From the NCBI GenBank assembly GCA_048938105.1, contig JBHLMN010000009.1:64001-128000 (forward strand): DNA of 64,000 nt. Reading direction: 5' to 3'. Under the pieces are notes generated by a model. The model made no database searches, was not told the DNA's origin, and saw nothing but the letters and a program-made list of their open reading frames with translations. Shown one piece after another: positions 45,789 to 58,378 of the stretch; within the stretch, counting starts at the first letter, position 1, and each line of letters opens with the position of its first letter. This DNA comes from Promethearchaeota archaeon (GTDB lineage: Archaea; Asgardarchaeota; Heimdallarchaeia; Hodarchaeales; Hodarchaeaceae). The position numbers and the translations under genes are program-made.

Positions 45789-46613
45789 CTATTTTCCAGT
45801 TACAATTAGTCTTAAGAAAGCGCCTAAATCTTTAACTTTAGGTAGAAAAGCTGGTGTACTTTTTACATAGTCCTCGAACGTTGAACCATACCTACGAATT
45901 AGCTCTTTGTCCTCCGAACGAGCAATGAAATAATAACATATAGTCGCTAATATAGCTAGAACCAGTGCAATTATATTCTGCGACAATAAGGCGAGGCCAA
46001 AACACATGTAAACTCCTTCAGCATAATGAGGATGCCGTATATACTTAAATACTCCTCCTTGCAACTTTTTAGCCTTTTCAGGATAAATAATATAAAGAAA
46101 AAGTTCTGTATCTAATGTAAATCCGCCATTAACAGCGTCACGACCCATTAATGGATACAATCCGATTAATAGAATTGCTAAAGGAAAAGCTATCTGCCAG
46201 GGGATAATAGTTTGGTAAAGGAGGTTATTCTGGTATGCGGGGTAAAGCATTGGAATGAAAGTGTTGTTCTCTACCATGATAATCAATATCATTGTCATTG
46301 TATTTGGTGGTATCACAGGAATAAGGTAGTAGTAGAAAAATTTCGTATAAGCGCGGTCTTCATACTTATTCCGATAATTTTCACGGATTTTTTCCGCATT
46401 TCGCGAAATCCGTGACATAGTCCAATATGCAAGCATGTAAATGACAATTGCAATTAGTAATGGGGCCCACCAATCAATCATATTCAGAAAATGAACCAAA
46501 AGAAGCATTGTTATTGAAGAAAAAATTATGATAAAAATAGTCTTAACACTAGTAATCTCAGGCATATATTCTTTGAGTAAATCAAGGCCAGATTTTTCTG
46601 TACTAAGTTCCAA
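45789..46613 (-). CDS. ICMT/PEMT family membrane methyltransferase
   Basis: GVFKYIRHPHY, EDKELIRRYG..FEDYVKSTPAFLP. Confidence 0.88.
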   Translation of the reverse strand: MELSTEKSGLDLLKEYMPEITSVKTIFIIIFSSITMLLLVHFLNMIDWWAPLLIAIVIYMLAYWTMSRISRNAEKIRENYRNKYEDRAYTKFFYYYLIPVIPPNTMTMILIIMVENNTFIPMLYPAYQNNLLYQTIIPWQIAFPLAILLIGLYPLMGRDAVNGGFTLDTELFLYIIYPEKAKKLQGGVFKYIRHPHYAEGVYMCFGLALLSQNIIALVLAILATICYYFIARSEDKELIRRYGSTFEDYVKSTPAFLPKVKDLGAFLRLIVTGK

Positions 46614-46767: not shown

Positions 46768-47379
46768 ATGACATTTTTATCCATTTTTACTGTCCTAGGA
46801 TTGTTAATAAGTTCTGTGGGGTTTCCTACATTATTTATCATTTCTTTTCTAATTACTCGACTTCGACTAGGAGAAATCCCACCCCATAGACATGATCTCA
46901 CCATTATTATAATAGCAACTCTTTGTATCATTTGGGTTATCCTCTGCTTTTATTGTGTCTTAGATCCAACAATTATCACATTTTTCGGTGAATTGTCACT
47001 GCTAAAAAATATATGGATTGAAATTGTTGCTCTACTATTTTGTTTATCAGGATTCTTGATTCTTATGGCTGCTTTTTTTGAAATGGGTAATTCTTTCAGA
47101 ATGGGTATTCCACCAGAAGAAGAAACACCAGCAGCTTTAATTACAACTGGGATTTTCAAGTATATCCGAAACCCTGGTTTTTTGGGAGTGAATTTGGCTG
47201 TTCTTGGAACTTTTTTTCTGGTACCATCAATTCTATTTTGTATTCTAGTAGTCTTATCTTTGATCTCCTTTCATATTCAGATAAAAAAGGAGGAAGTATA
47301 CCTCCAACGAATGCACGGAGACCTATACAGACGATATATTCAACAGACTGGACGATATTTTCCAAAACTTTTCAAATGA
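46768..47379 (+). CDS. ICMT family membrane methyltransferase
   Basis: MGNSFRMGI, LITTGIFKYIRNPGF, EEVYL..HG..YRRY..TGRYFP. Confidence 0.9.
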   Translation: MTFLSIFTVLGLLISSVGFPTLFIISFLITRLRLGEIPPHRHDLTIIIIATLCIIWVILCFYCVLDPTIITFFGELSLLKNIWIEIVALLFCLSGFLILMAAFFEMGNSFRMGIPPEEETPAALITTGIFKYIRNPGFLGVNLAVLGTFFLVPSILFCILVVLSLISFHIQIKKEEVYLQRMHGDLYRRYIQQTGRYFPKLFK

Positions 47380-49425: not shown

Positions 49426-49953
49426 TCAACTTGTATTACTCTTAAAAAATAATTTTAGGAGTGAAGATGGATTGGGAATCCATCTTGGAACCTCTTTTTG
49501 ATATTCAAAATACTCATTCCCAAAAATTCGTTCCAATTCTTTTTCTTCAAAAATAGCGATTTTATTATAAAGAATGAACGTTATAATCCATGGAATGACA
49601 GAAATCACCGACAATGATAGGAATATAAGCCCGAGATATAATACGAGTGTACCGAAATACATAGGGTGACGAACTACTGCAAATACATCATCTGATATTA
49701 ACCTAGAAGGTTGGTTTACACCTCCAAATAGCCTATTATGTGATGTCATACCAAATCTTACAGCTAGGATCAAAAAGATTAGAAATAATAATATTTGAAT
49801 AATAAGAAGGTTACTTATTAGAATATCATTAGGTAGTTGAACAAGAATTAAATCTAATAACCATATAATCAAAAATGCCAAACCACAACCAGCTTGAATT
49901 AGATGTGATTGGGGATGCTCTTTTCCAATCCCATGTTGATGAGAGTTTTGCAA
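49426..49953 (-). CDS. ICMT family membrane methyltransferase (third copy)
   Basis: VRHPMYFG, EEKELERIFG.EY.EYQKEVPRWIP. Confidence 0.9.
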   Translation of the reverse strand: MQNSHQHGIGKEHPQSHLIQAGCGLAFLIIWLLDLILVQLPNDILISNLLIIQILLFLIFLILAVRFGMTSHNRLFGGVNQPSRLISDDVFAVVRHPMYFGTLVLYLGLIFLSLSVISVIPWIITFILYNKIAIFEEKELERIFGNEYFEYQKEVPRWIPNPSSLLKLFFKSNTS

Positions 49954-52650: not shown

Positions 52651-53436
52651 ATGATAGAGATAAAAAAACTGAAAACAGTTGAAGAATTCAAACAAACCTT
52701 CGAAATTCAAAAGAACGCTTGGGGGATTAGTGATTTAGAAATAGACCCTCATTTTTTAATGAGTAGAGTTCAAAAATATGGTGGCTTACTTCAAGGACTT
52801 TTTATAGATACAAAATGTGTTGGTTTCACTTATGGCATTCTTGGAAAATGGCAGGGAGAGATCTTTTTTTTCTCCTATATGGCAGCAGTGATGAGGGAAT
52901 ACCAAGGGCAAGGATTTGGATTCCTATTAAAAAAAGCTCAAAGAGAAGAAGTCCTAAAGATGGATTATAATATCATTCGGTGGAATTTTGACCCACTAGA
53001 ATCCTTAAATGCTTATTTTAACTTTCATAGACTGGGAGTAATCAGCTCAGAATATGAAAGAAATATTTATGGAGTGGGGGATAGAGGACTTGACAAAGGT
53101 CTCCCAACCGACAGATTACTTGTCACCTGGAATTTAACCTCTGAACGAGTGATCAAAAAAATGGAAAAAAAAGAAGCAAAGATTATAGAAATGATTCCTA
53201 CCGCAAAAATAGGGGAGTTTAAAAACAAAATTGCTTATATCGAAATCCCTAGAGATATCCGTTCTTTGAAAAAGAATGATTTAAATCAAGCATATGAGTG
53301 GAGAGCGAAGACATGTGAACAGTTTGAGTTCGCTTTTAGAAGCGGATTTGTTGCTGAGGAAATCGTTTTTTCAGAGGATCAAAAGAGAATCTTCTATAAA
53401 TTAACCAAGAAGGATGATGATGTTGAATCGGATTAA
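52651..53436 (+). CDS. GNAT acyltransferase (COG3375-like, candidate D-amino acid N-succinyltransferase)
   Basis: YQGQGFGFLLKKAQR, WNFDPL..NAYFNF..LG, GLPTDRL; overlaps the NSAR gene. Confidence 0.88.
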   Translation: MIEIKKLKTVEEFKQTFEIQKNAWGISDLEIDPHFLMSRVQKYGGLLQGLFIDTKCVGFTYGILGKWQGEIFFFSYMAAVMREYQGQGFGFLLKKAQREEVLKMDYNIIRWNFDPLESLNAYFNFHRLGVISSEYERNIYGVGDRGLDKGLPTDRLLVTWNLTSERVIKKMEKKEAKIIEMIPTAKIGEFKNKIAYIEIPRDIRSLKKNDLNQAYEWRAKTCEQFEFAFRSGFVAEEIVFSEDQKRIFYKLTKKDDDVESD

Positions 53437-54547
53437 TCATATCGATTCTATAGAATTATTCATTGTTAAGCTTCCTCTTGTGGAACCTTTTGAGACTAGC
53501 TTTGCAATTGAGACCCACAAGGAAGCTCTTCTATTGAGAATAAGCTCTGAAGGAATAGATGGCTGGGGTGAATGCGTGGCTTCTCCAGATCCCTATTTCA
53601 GTAGTGAAACTAATGAAACTGCCCTTCATATAATTCGAACTTATTTATTATCATTAATTACAAAGATGAAGAATTTCTCACTTCAAGAGGTTCTAGAAGC
53701 GTTCGAGAGGATCAGGGGCCATAATATGGCGAAAGCAACTGTAGAAAATGCTCTTCTTGATCTTCTAGCTAGAAAACGAGGTCTCCCCCTGTATGAGCTC
53801 ATTGGCGGAGAAAAAAAAAGGATTATGTCAGGTATTAGTATTGGGATCAAACAAGACATAAATGATCTTCTAGAGACCATTAAAAGAGCATTGAGTAAAA
53901 ACTATCACAGAATCAAGATTAAAATAAAAAAAGGAATGGAAATTGAACCCTTAACTAGAGTACGGGAGAATTTCCCAGATATCAAAATCATGGTAGACGC
54001 CAATGCTGATTATTCCATTAAAGATATCAGAATCCTCAAACAACTCGATAATTTTGATCTAATGATGATCGAACAACCGTTAGAATATAATGACCTCTAT
54101 TTTCATTCATTAGTTCAGAAAGAATTACAAACACCGATTTGCCTTGATGAATCAATTGAGAATCTCAACGATGCTAAAACTGCTATTAATTTGGGAAGCT
54201 GTCAATTCATTAATATTAAACAAGGACGTGTAGGGGGTATTTTGAATGCAAAAGTCATTCAAGAATATTGCAGTAAAAATGGTATAAAAGTCTGGTCTGG
54301 AGGTATGCTAGAAACAGGTATCGGAAGAGCTTTTAATATCCATTTACAAACGCTTCCTGGCTTTTTATTGCCAGGTGATACTTCTGAAACCTCCCGCTAT
54401 TTCCAAAAGGATATTGTTGAACCCTCAGTAAAGCTTCGAGCAGATGGGTTTATTGATATACCTGAAGGTGAGGGGATAGGGGTACGAGTCATCCCAGACA
54501 GATTGACGCGCTTCACAGCCTTTTCTGAAAAGATAGAATGCAAGTAA
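53414..54547 (+). CDS. menC: o-succinylbenzoate synthase / N-succinylamino-acid racemase (NSAR/OSBS subfamily)
   Basis: PFETSF, GWGEC, KIKIK, DAN, EQPL, LDES, NIKQGRVGG, GGMLETGIGRA, LPGDTS. Confidence 0.92.
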   Translation: MMMLNRINHIDSIELFIVKLPLVEPFETSFAIETHKEALLLRISSEGIDGWGECVASPDPYFSSETNETALHIIRTYLLSLITKMKNFSLQEVLEAFERIRGHNMAKATVENALLDLLARKRGLPLYELIGGEKKRIMSGISIGIKQDINDLLETIKRALSKNYHRIKIKIKKGMEIEPLTRVRENFPDIKIMVDANADYSIKDIRILKQLDNFDLMMIEQPLEYNDLYFHSLVQKELQTPICLDESIENLNDAKTAINLGSCQFINIKQGRVGGILNAKVIQEYCSKNGIKVWSGGMLETGIGRAFNIHLQTLPGFLLPGDTSETSRYFQKDIVEPSVKLRADGFIDIPEGEGIGVRVIPDRLTRFTAFSEKIECK

Positions 54548-54549
54548 CT

Positions 54550-55908
54550 CTATGTATCAAGATATTTTATCCCCGCTTTACCCCAAGAATCTAATGCTTG
54601 TTGTAATTCTACGTATTCGTCCTCGTGGTCATCTAAGTAATCTTCAAGATCCTCAGCTGCTTCATCTAAGTGAGTCATACCAATATCAATGACCTGCCGA
54701 AATGCTTTTGCTCCTGCCCGGGTACCTTTTGGATGCGAATGAATTCCAACACCTGCTCCAATCATAATATCGTTACCTAAATCCTTCATGATACGTAAAG
54801 CAATTCCTGGTGTTACTCCTCCTGATGGCATAGGTAATACTGGTTTTAACGAACCGAAGGGATAACGGAGTGCTTTTGCACAGGCAAGATATTTATCCCG
54901 AATAAAAGGTGCTTTGCTATATGCACTAGGGTAGACTAGTGCATCAAGCCCCGCCAACCGAGCGAGCTTTCCCATAATTAGGAATGAAGACATACCAGAC
55001 ATTGAAGACTCATAGTACACTCCAGCAAAATCCATATGCCCTAAAATAGGAACTTTAATACTCTCATCAGCAGCTAACTCCCGTACAACAGGAAGGCCTG
55101 CAGTTAGATAATTAACCATGAGTCCATTAGTCCCAAAATCAAGCGCTTTTTGGGCATTTTCTAAAATTTTCTGAGGTTCAGCTGTTATATTCACCATATA
55201 GATGGTATCTTCTCCTGTTTCATCTTTAGCTTTATCTTTCATCTCCATGTAGGTAGTAACCCTATCCTCTAATGGTAAATACTTAATATCACCAGCTGTA
55301 CTTTCATCGTCTTTGATGAAGTCAGCGCCGCCCATCGCTGCTTCATAAAAAAGGGCTTTCCCATCCTCCAAGGTGTAGGCATGATCAATATTTGTTAAGA
55401 AAGGCCGTTTTGGCACAGCAAGTTGTTTTCTAATGCCTTCAATCCCAAATTTCGGTCCTTTGAACTCAGATAGAAAACGTTGGGGGAAAATAACGTCTAG
55501 AAGTTTGACTTTGCCACCCATACTAATGTTACCCAGTAGAGTAGTCAATAGTAATGGAAATTGGGTGTCTAATCCTTCAAGAGGGTACGCGACTTGAATA
55601 ATATATTGTCGTTCTTTCACTTCGTTTGGAATGCCTATTTCATAAGGAGGAATTTCATACACACCAATGACCTTACCTGAGAACTTTCGAAGGATTTCAC
55701 GGGGGTCACTATGAACTGGATAATAAGAGCCAACAGTTTGTTCTTGAATAACTACTTTTCCCATATACCAGGGGTCAAGAGTACTACTAAATGCAGTATA
55801 GTATATTCCAATCACATAATCCTCGGAATTTATAGACTCTTGTAGTCCCTCAGGGTAATATCCCCATTTACTATCAGCATAACTATCAAATTTCGATTTC
55901 TTTACCAT
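54550..55908 (-). CDS. RuBisCO-like protein (form IV), divergent
   Basis: EQTVG, GNISMGGK, GPKFGIEGIR, GGADFIKDDE, ILGH, PMPSGG, GIHSHPKG..AGAKAFRQ. Confidence 0.92.
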   Translation of the reverse strand: MVKKSKFDSYADSKWGYYPEGLQESINSEDYVIGIYYTAFSSTLDPWYMGKVVIQEQTVGSYYPVHSDPREILRKFSGKVIGVYEIPPYEIGIPNEVKERQYIIQVAYPLEGLDTQFPLLLTTLLGNISMGGKVKLLDVIFPQRFLSEFKGPKFGIEGIRKQLAVPKRPFLTNIDHAYTLEDGKALFYEAAMGGADFIKDDESTAGDIKYLPLEDRVTTYMEMKDKAKDETGEDTIYMVNITAEPQKILENAQKALDFGTNGLMVNYLTAGLPVVRELAADESIKVPILGHMDFAGVYYESSMSGMSSFLIMGKLARLAGLDALVYPSAYSKAPFIRDKYLACAKALRYPFGSLKPVLPMPSGGVTPGIALRIMKDLGNDIMIGAGVGIHSHPKGTRAGAKAFRQVIDIGMTHLDEAAEDLEDYLDDHEDEYVELQQALDSWGKAGIKYLDT

Positions 55909-55992: not shown

Positions 55993-56331
55993 ATGAAAAA
56001 CCAACTTTTTGTTTTATTTAATAATAATAAAGGGATCTTCACTCATATCCTTTTGAACGTCTTTGATTTGGCTGAAAAAGGTTACAATGTTGGGATAGTA
56101 TTTGAGAGTGAGGCATGTAAACTGATCACGGAATATGAAAACAAAAAATATGAGAAATTTGAAAAGTTAAAAGAAAAAAATTTAGTCGCTGCTGTTTGTA
56201 AGGTTTGTGCAAAGGCAATGGGTGCATTAGAATCTGCAGAACGGCAAGGATTCCCTATTGACGACACTTTACATGGCCATCCTTCATTAGAATCTTGGAT
56301 TAACAATGGATTCAATGTGATGCTTATTTAA
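55993..56331 (+). CDS. DsrE-like protein
   Basis: HILLN..L..KG..V.IVFE.EA, VCKVCAKAMG, GHPSL. Confidence 0.8.
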   Translation: MKNQLFVLFNNNKGIFTHILLNVFDLAEKGYNVGIVFESEACKLITEYENKKYEKFEKLKEKNLVAAVCKVCAKAMGALESAERQGFPIDDTLHGHPSLESWINNGFNVMLI

Positions 56332-56386: not shown

Positions 56387-58378
56387 ATGAATGATCATCA
56401 AATTCTTTATGGAGATGTTTGGGCAAGTCTTTCCACATTAGAGGACAATTTTGTCGATTGTGTTATCACCTCCCCTCCCTACTGGTCACAAAGAGATTAT
56501 GGATTTAATTCCCAAATAGGGATTGAATCTACTCTTAATAATTATCTTACAAAATTAGTCACTATTTGTAATTTACTCCGCCAAAAATTAAAGCCCAAAG
56601 GAAATTTTTACTTAAATATTGGCGATAAATATGTTAGCAAATATGGTAACACCCCTTTAGCAATGATTCCCTATTTATTAGCTTATTTTCTAGTCAGAGA
56701 CGGTTGGAAATTAAAGGATACTTTAATCTGGTATAAAACGAATCATATGCCAGCTCCAGTTAAGAACCGATTAACTAACACTTATGAGCCAATATTTGTG
56801 TTCTCTAAGACCAATAGGAATTATTATAGCGATTATAGACAAACAGTGAATGTTTCTAATATTTTGAAAATACCTCTCCAACCTGTTCCATATAAACATA
56901 TAGCTACTTACCCTGAGAAGCTTGTTGAAGCAATATTGAGATTTGGTCTCCCTAATGATGCATTAGTACTAGATCCATTTGCAGGCTCAGGAACTACCTG
57001 TAAAGCAACCCAGCATATATCTGAGGGATACTTCAATCCAATCAAAATGCGTTCGATTATGATTGAAGCATATAATGAGTACATCAAGATCATTAGAAGA
57101 CGATGTAACATCAAAAAGGGAAATATTCGGAAAATTCCCTTCAGATCTTATCAAGTCCCTCCTCTTATCAATAACTTCGTCATCCCAGAAGCAGAAAACA
57201 AAATTCCTGATGATTGTAAATTTGAATCCAGTAATGTGATTATCAAGGTATTTCAAAAGTCAAAAGATTTTCATTCATTTCTTCCCTTTCTATTTAATAC
57301 CGTTATTATTGATTCCTTAGATGACGATGGGATTTTGTTCCTAGGATTACCAAACCATGATATCGAGGATATTTTCTCAATCACACAACTAAATGATCAT
57401 GGATGGATTATTCGAAATATGAATGTTGTTCCTCGAGAAAAAGACTGGATTCCTATCTTCATGATGGTCAAAGATATCAAGTCTGTAAGATACAAATTCA
57501 ATCTTGATAAAATTAGAGTTGATCATCAATATGAGAGTACAGAAAATTGGAACAGTATTGATTTCACTGGGTATCGAGTGGAAAAATCGCAAGCGTTGTA
57601 CAAAAAACCAGATACAGGCCTGATTGGTAAAGTTCTCTCATGTCATCCAAATGGATTACCTCATTGGATTGTAGTTAAATGGAAATCACGAGGATACTCT
57701 GTCGAAGAAGTTATTACTGGTTCTGGCCAAAAAAAGAACATTAAAATGTTTTGTCCAGAGTGTAAAACGGAATTACTGAAATATTATCATTATAAAGATG
57801 TAATTTCATGTCCCTCGTGCTTACTACAACTATGGCAAGATACAAAGAGCATCCCGATACTTGTGGAAGTTAATCCATTTAATAAACCTGAATATCAGCA
57901 TGAAAACATTGATGTTTTAGAGAAGAAAACAAAAAAAGAATACGAGGGGAAGTTTAAAGATATGGATAGAATAAATATTGGACAATCCCCTGGAGCTAGA
58001 GTTTCCATTGAAGATCAGTTTTTTTCCGTCAAGAGGTACTATACTGTAAAACAAAGCATGATTTCCGATTATCTTAATCTCCATAGAACGAAGAATAGTC
58101 TATCAAAGAATGCTTTAACTCAAAAATTCCCTCCCGAGTATAAGCACACGGTTGGCCATTGGTTACGAAAGGATATGGGAGGGTCTCTTCCTAAATATGA
58201 GGATTTAATCAAGTTGAATGAATTTCTACACTTGGATCAATCTTATATTAATTATATCAGTCGAACAGGGTTGAATTTGCAGACTGTTATAACAGATGCT
58301 AAAGGAAAAAATCCAGGAGACTTTCTAGATTACCCTTTACCACAAGTAATTACCATGTTAAAAAGAGTTGGTGAATAA
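56387..58378 (+). CDS. Beta-class N4/N6 DNA methyltransferase with long C-terminal extension (degenerate MTase repeat, Zn ribbon, HTH)
   Basis: TSPPY, HIATYP, VLDPFAGSGTT; CPEC/CPSC; HTH-like segment; GKNPGD. Confidence 0.9.
   Translation: MNDHQILYGDVWASLSTLEDNFVDCVITSPPYWSQRDYGFNSQIGIESTLNNYLTKLVTICNLLRQKLKPKGNFYLNIGDKYVSKYGNTPLAMIPYLLAYFLVRDGWKLKDTLIWYKTNHMPAPVKNRLTNTYEPIFVFSKTNRNYYSDYRQTVNVSNILKIPLQPVPYKHIATYPEKLVEAILRFGLPNDALVLDPFAGSGTTCKATQHISEGYFNPIKMRSIMIEAYNEYIKIIRRRCNIKKGNIRKIPFRSYQVPPLINNFVIPEAENKIPDDCKFESSNVIIKVFQKSKDFHSFLPFLFNTVIIDSLDDDGILFLGLPNHDIEDIFSITQLNDHGWIIRNMNVVPREKDWIPIFMMVKDIKSVRYKFNLDKIRVDHQYESTENWNSIDFTGYRVEKSQALYKKPDTGLIGKVLSCHPNGLPHWIVVKWKSRGYSVEEVITGSGQKKNIKMFCPECKTELLKYYHYKDVISCPSCLLQLWQDTKSIPILVEVNPFNKPEYQHENIDVLEKKTKKEYEGKFKDMDRINIGQSPGARVSIEDQFFSVKRYYTVKQSMISDYLNLHRTKNSLSKNALTQKFPPEYKHTVGHWLRKDMGGSLPKYEDLIKLNEFLHLDQSYINYISRTGLNLQTVITDAKGKNPGDFLDYPLPQVITMLKRVGE

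Follow-up and report, generated by a model that had tools for sequence, protein, structure and literature searches.

A Conserved Histidine at the Lys175 Position of a Form IV RuBisCO-Like Protein from Hodarchaeales-Type Asgard Archaea

The RuBisCO-Like Protein Gene and Its Neighbourhood

The window analyzed here is a stretch of 64,000 nucleotides, and its source genome (5.85 Mb) is 99% complete. It contains a gene for a RuBisCO-like protein (RLP), and the features of this gene and of related loci are collected in Table 1. Pfam profile searches with the 452-aa protein give 115 bits for PF00016 RuBisCO_large (cut-off 30) and 22.2 bits for PF02788 RuBisCO_large_N (cut-off 20.7), and the ORF is a member of the RuBisCO large-subunit superfamily. 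The AlphaFold2 model of the protein (pLDDT 92, pTM 0.90) has the N-domain and the TIM-barrel fold. Foldseek matches it to RLP and RuBisCO structures with a probability of 1.0, and the top matches are MtnW RLPs with a TM of 0.8-0.9.

The original prediction, made from the DNA letters, had read the gene as in frame. The 452-aa ORF and three indel-free contigs agree with this. One of them, X2, belongs to the same study but to an independent sample; it spans positions 55292-55780 and has zero differences from the window. The codon of His176 (55381-55383) is covered by X2 and by X5 and X6, which come from two other studies, and no indels are reported. An assembly error is excluded because contigs of independent samples span this codon without insertion or deletion. 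No RNA evidence for the gene is listed among the RNA runs.

Table 1. Features of the window RLP, its neighbours, and related loci. Positions are those of the window unless a contig or locus is named.
Feature	Position	Strand	Remarks
RLP gene	54550..55908	-	452 aa, ATG start; form IV, His176 ('NIDH') clade
E56...S61-Y62	55723..55743	-	E60 kept; Ser for T65 and Tyr/Phe for W66; N-domain side of the P1-phosphate pocket
N127 (N123 equivalent)	55528..55530	-	Asn; MtnW enolases are marked by a Lys here
N173-I174-D175-H176	55381..55392	-	C-terminal end of barrel strand beta1; His176 predicted at the Lys175 position
K199-D200-D201-E202 (KDDE)	55303..55314	-	Carbamate lysine and Mg2+ ligands; K201, D203, and E204 equivalents
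H291 (H294 equivalent)	55036..55038	-	Followed by Met (M292) at the RuBisCO R295 position
K332 (loop-6 K334 equivalent)	54913..54915	-	Invariant
S362-G363-G364 (S379-G380-G381 equivalents)	54817..54825	-	Kept
G386-V387-G388	54745..54753	-	GVG for GGG; G404 equivalent bears a side chain, which changes the P1 anion pocket
Acidic helical C-terminal insert D415-E434	54607..54666	-	Common to the Lys-bearing paralogue of the same genus
MenC/N-succinylamino-acid-racemase-type gene, enolase superfamily	53414-54547	+	TIGR01928, 346 bits; convergent with RLP
DsrE-like gene	55993-56331	+	112 aa; divergent from RLP, 84-bp spacer
N6/N4 DNA methylase gene	56387-58378	+	663 aa; match to the methylase domain limited to the first ~240 residues
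PEMT/ICMT-like paralogue	45789-46613	-	Membrane methyltransferase
PEMT/ICMT-like paralogue	46768-47379	+	Membrane methyltransferase
PEMT/ICMT-like paralogue	49426-49953	-	Membrane methyltransferase
Form III RuBisCO gene of the genome	G000:C53:60009-61073		58 kb upstream, same contig
Form III RuBisCO locus	L001 1480-2784	-	G000:C53, some 3 kb ahead of the window
Lys175-bearing RLP gene of the genome	G000:C14:214985-216373 = L002 1477-2865	-	54% identical to the window protein
Arf-family small GTPase	L124 6229-7293 = G000:C14:198229-199293	+	354 aa; adjoins the FGGY-B/aminotransferase pair

The stop codons of the RLP gene and of the MenC/NSAR-type gene are only 2 bases apart. This gene, the DsrE-like gene, and the DNA methylase gene are kept as neighbours only among relatives of >90% identity. 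More distant orthologues adjoin genes for HisRS, starch synthase, UbiA, an ADSL fragment, and polyprenyl synthase, and beyond the relatives of >90% identity no conserved operon was found around the gene. An FGGY gene within five ORFs is found at 0/9 loci of the His clade, and the window gene itself adjoins no FGGY kinase, class III aminotransferase, or saccharopine-dehydrogenase-like gene. Elsewhere in the window, the three PEMT/ICMT-like paralogues lie within 4 kb and are interleaved with a gene for a CCG/4Fe-4S protein and with a gene of the metallo-beta-lactamase fold.

Position 175 and the Shortened Loop

Lys175 is one of the three residues thought to run the proton transfers of RuBisCO. 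Nearly all RLPs retain it. In RuBisCO this residue hydrogen-bonds O2, exchanges a proton with it, and stabilizes the enolate charge (bioRxiv 10.64898/2025.12.22.696010).

The original prediction saw no Lys at about 55360-55410 of the window, a loop about 3 residues shorter than usual, and a rewired active site with Asp or His in place of Lys. The segment FLTNIDHAYTLEDG (residues 170-183, window 55360-55401) is indeed without any Lys. Alignment with 99 Lys-bearing relatives shows a loss of exactly 3 residues in this stretch ('TNIDH---A' vs 'NNMIKPCTG'). After an invariant Arg-Pro, the strand ends in N-I-D-H in the window RLP, as against N-M-I-K-P-C in the relatives. The shortening is real, with one correction to its place: the HMMER alignment with Geobacillus kaustophilus MtnW (2oek) is gapless through the strand and pairs K147 (the K175 equivalent) with His176, and the three residues are lost just after it.

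In the AlphaFold2 model of the window RLP, a six-residue strand (170-175) comes directly after Arg-Pro and is followed by His176. The model of the genome's own Lys-bearing paralogue (pLDDT 93) has a six-residue strand (181-186) after Arg-Pro and then Lys187. Helix alpha1 starts 3 residues past His176 in the former and 6 residues past Lys187 in the latter. What is lost is the turn 'P-C-x', which bears the Lys177 position. Asp175 stands in for the hydrophobic strand residue Ile174. By strand register, in the alignments and in the models, His176 is predicted to occupy the Lys175 position, and the same register suggests how its side chain would be placed relative to the metal. Asp175 was considered as the Lys175 equivalent and is rejected because the register after the invariant Arg-Pro puts His176 there. 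Of the Asp/His proposal, the rewiring and the His stand and the Asp falls. It had also been conceivable that another Lys superposes on K175; no clade-specific Lys was found inside the barrel elements, which speaks against this.

Retained and Altered Active-Site Residues

KDDE, the equivalents of E60, N123, and H294, and SGG had been listed as retained, GGG as changed to GVG, and an acidic segment had been noted near the C-terminus. Each of these is found at the positions given in Table 1. The pattern extends to the clade of 21 closest sequence clusters that is described below. The equivalents of E60, N123, K201, E204, H294, K334, G380, G381, and G403 are kept in 21/21. In the metal site, the K201 equivalent is Lys and the E204 equivalent is Glu in all 21, and the D203 equivalent is Asp in 18/21 and Asn in 3/21. 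The members with KDNE instead of KDDE are P0014, P0018, and P0019, all in a subclade that has Asn, not Asp, before the His. With these three members the metal site is not absolutely fixed.

Several residues that are invariant in 100/100 relatives are altered in 21/21 members of the clade. T65 is replaced by Ser (21/21), W66 by Tyr (19) or Phe (2), I174 by Asp/Asn, K175 by His, and G404 by Val/Ser/Ala/Thr. At position 175 itself, the clade has His in 21/21 and the relatives have Lys in 100/100; the preceding residue is D/N in 21/21 of the clade. Smaller clade shifts are also present after KDDE and in loop 6. The clade-specific changes concentrate in canonical active-site elements, namely residues 61, 62, 175, 176, and 387 and loop 6. 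The C1-phosphate (P1) pocket of RuBisCO is built from T65, W66, and the backbone of G403-G404. Since the clade is changed at T65, W66, and G404 as well as at K175, the pocket and the Lys175 site have been remodelled together.

Distribution, Selection, and Origin

The relatives were sought among 5.8 billion proteins, and the matches listed include 120 of them. The 21 closest clusters among these matches (65-100% identity) all have N-I-[D/N]-H and the 3-residue deletion, and the other 99 have NNMIKPC. The original prediction had asked whether NIDH is conserved or whether close orthologues all carry IKP. The latter fails, as His and the deletion are found in 21/21. These clusters come from MAGs labelled Heimdallarchaeota, Hodarchaeota/Hodarchaeales, or 'Hermodarchaeota'. 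Among GTDB species genomes, the His type is present in 11/21 genomes of the window's genus, and none was found outside the genus among the 82 genomes of the class that were searched. A metagenome scan gave a single locus of 2.1 kb, and a search of the ESM Atlas gave generic RLP clusters only.

The pairwise dN/dS of His-clade orthologues is 0.03-0.05 (about 0.04) at a dS of 0.9-1.4, which is the same as that of the Lys-bearing paralogue. The reading frame is intact in 10 genomes. The His clade is under strong purifying selection; it is no singleton in decay. Both the His and the Lys-bearing copy are retained in at least 9 genomes. Two genomes (G056 and G066) have the His gene and no Lys-bearing RLP was found in them; the paralogue is therefore not needed as a partner.

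The replacement is rare in the superfamily. A scan of 1.84 billion proteins gave roughly 1,600 representatives (50% clusters), of which the best 150 were surveyed, and 144 of these cover the strand. Position 175 among the 144 is Lys in 132, Arg in 4, His in 3, and another residue in 5. All 3 His representatives belong to the His176 clade. Three of the other five are also without KDDE; two keep KDDE or DDDE but their N-terminal part is poorly aligned. By these alignments, among the 144 of the best 150 representatives, a non-basic residue 175 together with an intact KDDE appears only in the His clade. Another rare substitution is seen in the distant representatives P0183, P0228, P0234, and P0242, which have Arg at the Lys175 position and an intact KDDE.

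The window genome has three RuBisCO-family genes, which encode a form III RuBisCO, a Lys-bearing RLP, and the His176 RLP. In three genomes of the genus, the form III gene and the His176 gene share a contig and are 38-58 kb apart. In another family of the class, the in-frame stops seen in RuBisCO hits are simply the terminal stop codons of ordinary form III genes. For the phylogeny that the original prediction had proposed, 76 proteins were placed in a maximum-likelihood tree. In it the His clade is monophyletic (SH-aLRT 100) and joins the Lys-bearing RLPs of the genus at SH-aLRT 99, within a broad Lys-bearing RLP family. Its stem measures 0.65 substitutions per site vs 0.10 for the sister. The window RLP is nested among RLP-type representatives and is sister to the Lys-bearing RLP clade. 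The nearest solved proteins are RLPs as well, and the carboxylase residues are missing, so the protein belongs to the form IV RLPs. The overall pattern is the one that would be expected if a gene was duplicated and one copy changed rapidly before coming under constraint, because of the tree topology, the long stem, and the C-terminal insert that is common to both paralogues.

Relation to Characterized RuBisCO-Like Proteins

To our knowledge, few functions have been assigned to RLPs, namely those of enolase, isomerase, decarboxylase/transcarboxylase, and oxygenase. The known RLP reactions include proton abstraction, isomerization, decarboxylation, and oxygenation (PMC10176493; PMC6302742). The NCBIfam models of MtnW score highest for the window RLP, yet both remain below their cut-offs (NF007095, 310 vs 409 bits; TIGR03332, 261 vs 514 bits). 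The OiaX model NF042437 gives 112 bits against a cut-off of 700, and the form III RuBisCO model gives 205 bits against a cut-off of 497.

Among solved structures, the best match is MtnW/YkrW of Geobacillus kaustophilus (2oek/2oem) and Bacillus subtilis (2zvi), with an E of 1e-65, ~32% identity, and a TM of 0.8-0.9. MtnW shares the KDDE Mg/carbamate site. It differs at the positions of N123 and K175, which hold a Lys and Lys147 in MtnW but Asn127 and His176 in the window RLP; the MtnW-type representatives read 'FGK' and 'SIFKG' at these two places. Imker et al. reportedly identified Lys98 of G. kaustophilus, at the N123 position, as the catalytic Lys of MtnW in 2007. The methionine-salvage context of MtnW is also absent around the window gene. 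The original prediction had noted that no mtn or DUF1537 kinase genes are adjacent, and this holds both for the neighbours and genome-wide: no mtn gene adjoins the window RLP, none scores above cut-off in the genome, and the DUF1537 kinase (PF07005) has zero matches in the 5.85 Mb. For MtnB, nothing in the genome scores above cut-off; the best hit (63 bits, cut-off 137) is a class II aldolase on contig C20. This aldolase gene adjoins another FGGY kinase gene.

OiaX (3-oxo-isoapionate-4-phosphate decarboxylase), the Rhodospirillum rubrum isomerase, and the Chlorobaculum tepidum RLP have the RuBisCO fold and enolization on sugar-phosphate-like substrates (PMC10176493, PMC6302742). The PDB matches of other characterized RLPs to the window RLP are much weaker than that of MtnW (1ykw, 162 bits; 2qyg, 139 bits; 3qfw, 89 bits). 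The OiaX-type pathway has a DUF1537 kinase as a partner, which the window genome lacks. Form III RuBisCO, both from the same genome and from Thermococcus kodakarensis (3a12), has the same fold at ~30% identity and has in common with the window RLP the framework of E60, the T65/W66 region, N123, KDDE, H294, K334, and SGG. However, K175, K177, R295, H298, and H327 of RuBisCO are absent: His176 is found for the first, K177 is deleted, M292 replaces R295, and H298 and H327 have no equivalents. RuBP carboxylation is therefore not expected of the window RLP.

The sub-cut-off scores, the Asn for the MtnW Lys, the lack of MtnB and DUF1537, and the distance to MtnW in the tree put the window RLP outside any characterized RLP family. 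From sequence comparison, it appears to be neither MtnW nor OiaX nor a carboxylase. Its closest known system is the Lys-bearing 'NNMIKPC' family, an uncharacterized form IV group that is 53-55% identical to the window RLP and agrees with it in fold and in the acidic C-terminal insert. The two have in common the equivalents of E60, N123, K201, D203, E204, H294, K334, and SGG and also the change of R295 to Met. The NNMIKPC family has K175, T65, W66, GGG, and a beta1-alpha1 loop that is 3 residues longer, and the window RLP differs at each of these. In the literature, no paper was found that joins RuBisCO-like proteins, K175, and form IV.

The Lysine-Bearing Parent Family and FGGY Kinases

The Lys-bearing family was examined at 61 loci from Chloroflexota, Deltaproteobacteria, Clostridia, and several archaeal phyla. 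An FGGY (xylulokinase-like) kinase gene lies within five ORFs at 31/61 of them, mostly directly upstream. A class III aminotransferase gene is present at 15 loci and a saccharopine-dehydrogenase-like gene at 10, and class II aldolase, MFS, and SorC genes recur nearby. The operon orders (loci L048-L122, e.g., L050, L061, L071, and L087) are FGGY kinase, RLP, and saccharopine-dehydrogenase-like gene, or FGGY kinase, class III aminotransferase, and RLP, and they are conserved across bacteria and archaea. Candidate cultivated carriers of such an operon are Eubacterium barkeri, Acetobacterium wieringae, and Caproiciproducens faecalis. The FGGY-linked operon of the Lys-bearing RLPs may encode an undescribed (amino)sugar pathway, and no paper linking RLPs with FGGY kinases was found in the literature.

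In the window genome, FGGY modules are found on contigs C14 and C61, beside neither RLP. In phyletic profiles, the His clade is uncorrelated with the FGGY-A/saccharopine-dehydrogenase-like and the FGGY-B/aminotransferase modules of the genus. The Arf-family small GTPase gene that adjoins the FGGY-B/aminotransferase pair (Table 1) shows synteny in four further genomes of the genus.

Proposed Function and Alternatives

We propose that the window RLP is a working, neofunctionalized form IV enzyme that catalyzes a Mg-dependent enolization with His as a proton shuttle, and we give this reading a probability of about 0.55. Its gene would have arisen by duplication of a Lys175-bearing RLP gene within one Hodarchaeales-type Asgard genus, and the copy would have diverged fast before it was frozen by selection. 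The residues for Mg2+ binding through a carbamylated lysine and for enolization of a carbonyl substrate (K199, D201, E202, E56, N127, H291, and Lys332 of loop 6) are kept, and the enzyme would still enolize a metal-bound carbonyl compound. His176, at the end of strand beta1, would take over the role of Lys175, polarizing a substrate oxygen near the metal and exchanging a proton. The shortened beta1-alpha1 loop, together with T65S, W66Y/F, and G404V, would rebuild the C1-phosphate pocket, and with such a rebuilt pocket the substrate most likely differs from that of the parent. It may be a keto-sugar-like compound other than the parent's or one with the same skeleton and a different distal group, and the difference would lie in the group held by the P1 pocket. 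The enzyme is most likely a homodimer, because the altered residues lie in the N-domain and C-domain halves of the site, which meet across the dimer interface, and the gene occurs without the paralogue. The claim of a rewired site gains from the fixation of His in 21/21, the strong purifying selection, and the coordinated changes of the P1-phosphate pocket. Either the reaction or the substrate is probably new to the enzyme family.

A bolder version, which we hold only tentatively and at less than even odds, is that the His176 clade has genuinely new chemistry or a new substrate class that evolved within the Asgard lineage. One example would be a His-based acid/base or second-metal site, made up of His176 with His291 and the carboxylates, that acts on a substrate without the usual C1 phosphate. 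The new RLP chemistry that the original prediction had thought possible is thus plausible.

The exchange of His for Lys could also be functionally conservative. The protein would then be an isofunctional paralogue that runs the parent's reaction with His as a stand-in, for instance adapted to a different pH, temperature, or regulation. All the remaining enolization residues are identical to those of the parent, and displacement of the parent would fit G056 and G066, which keep the FGGY-B/aminotransferase module and the His gene and in which no Lys-bearing RLP was found. We nevertheless consider such equivalence unlikely. T65, W66, and G404 do not vary in the 100 relatives and are altered throughout the clade, the stem branch is long, and the retention of both copies in at least nine genomes is evidence against redundancy. 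In addition, genome G055 has the kinase module and no RLP was found in it.

Loss of a near-universal catalytic residue and the absence of a metabolic operon around the gene would suit a non-catalytic RuBisCO-fold protein, which might sense a ligand, act as a regulator, or serve the Lys-bearing RLP as a partner subunit. This is improbable on the present evidence, as E56, N127, H291, K332, and SGG are kept, KDDE is kept as well (D201 in 18/21), and dN/dS is ~0.04. The replacement is always His, which is a catalytic-type residue, and the N-domain half of the site is changed as well as the C-domain half; the two come together only in a homodimer. A partner subunit would also have to be explained in G056 and G066, where no paralogue was found.

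The case for a DK-MTP-1-P enolase (MtnW) of methionine salvage is the best NCBIfam and PDB matches and the name DK-MTP-1-P enolase that JGI gives to the close relatives P0003 and P0019. It is very improbable, given the scores of 310 and 261 bits under the cut-offs of 409 and 514, the Asn and His at Lys98 and Lys147 of MtnW, the lack of an MtnB above cut-off in the genome, and the MtnW-type representatives that branch far off in the tree. A decaying pseudogene or an assembly artefact is refuted by the frame intact in 10 genomes, the dN/dS of ~0.04, and the identical, indel-free contigs of independent samples.

Significance

The host Asgard lineage is the closest to eukaryotes. Neither the His clade nor the widespread, FGGY-linked parent family has an assigned reaction, and since both paralogues are found within one genome they can be compared directly. 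A conserved and selected lineage in which Lys175 is replaced by His while the Mg/carbamate site is kept is a natural experiment on how position 175 works, and the His176 clade illustrates how the RuBisCO fold gains new functions.
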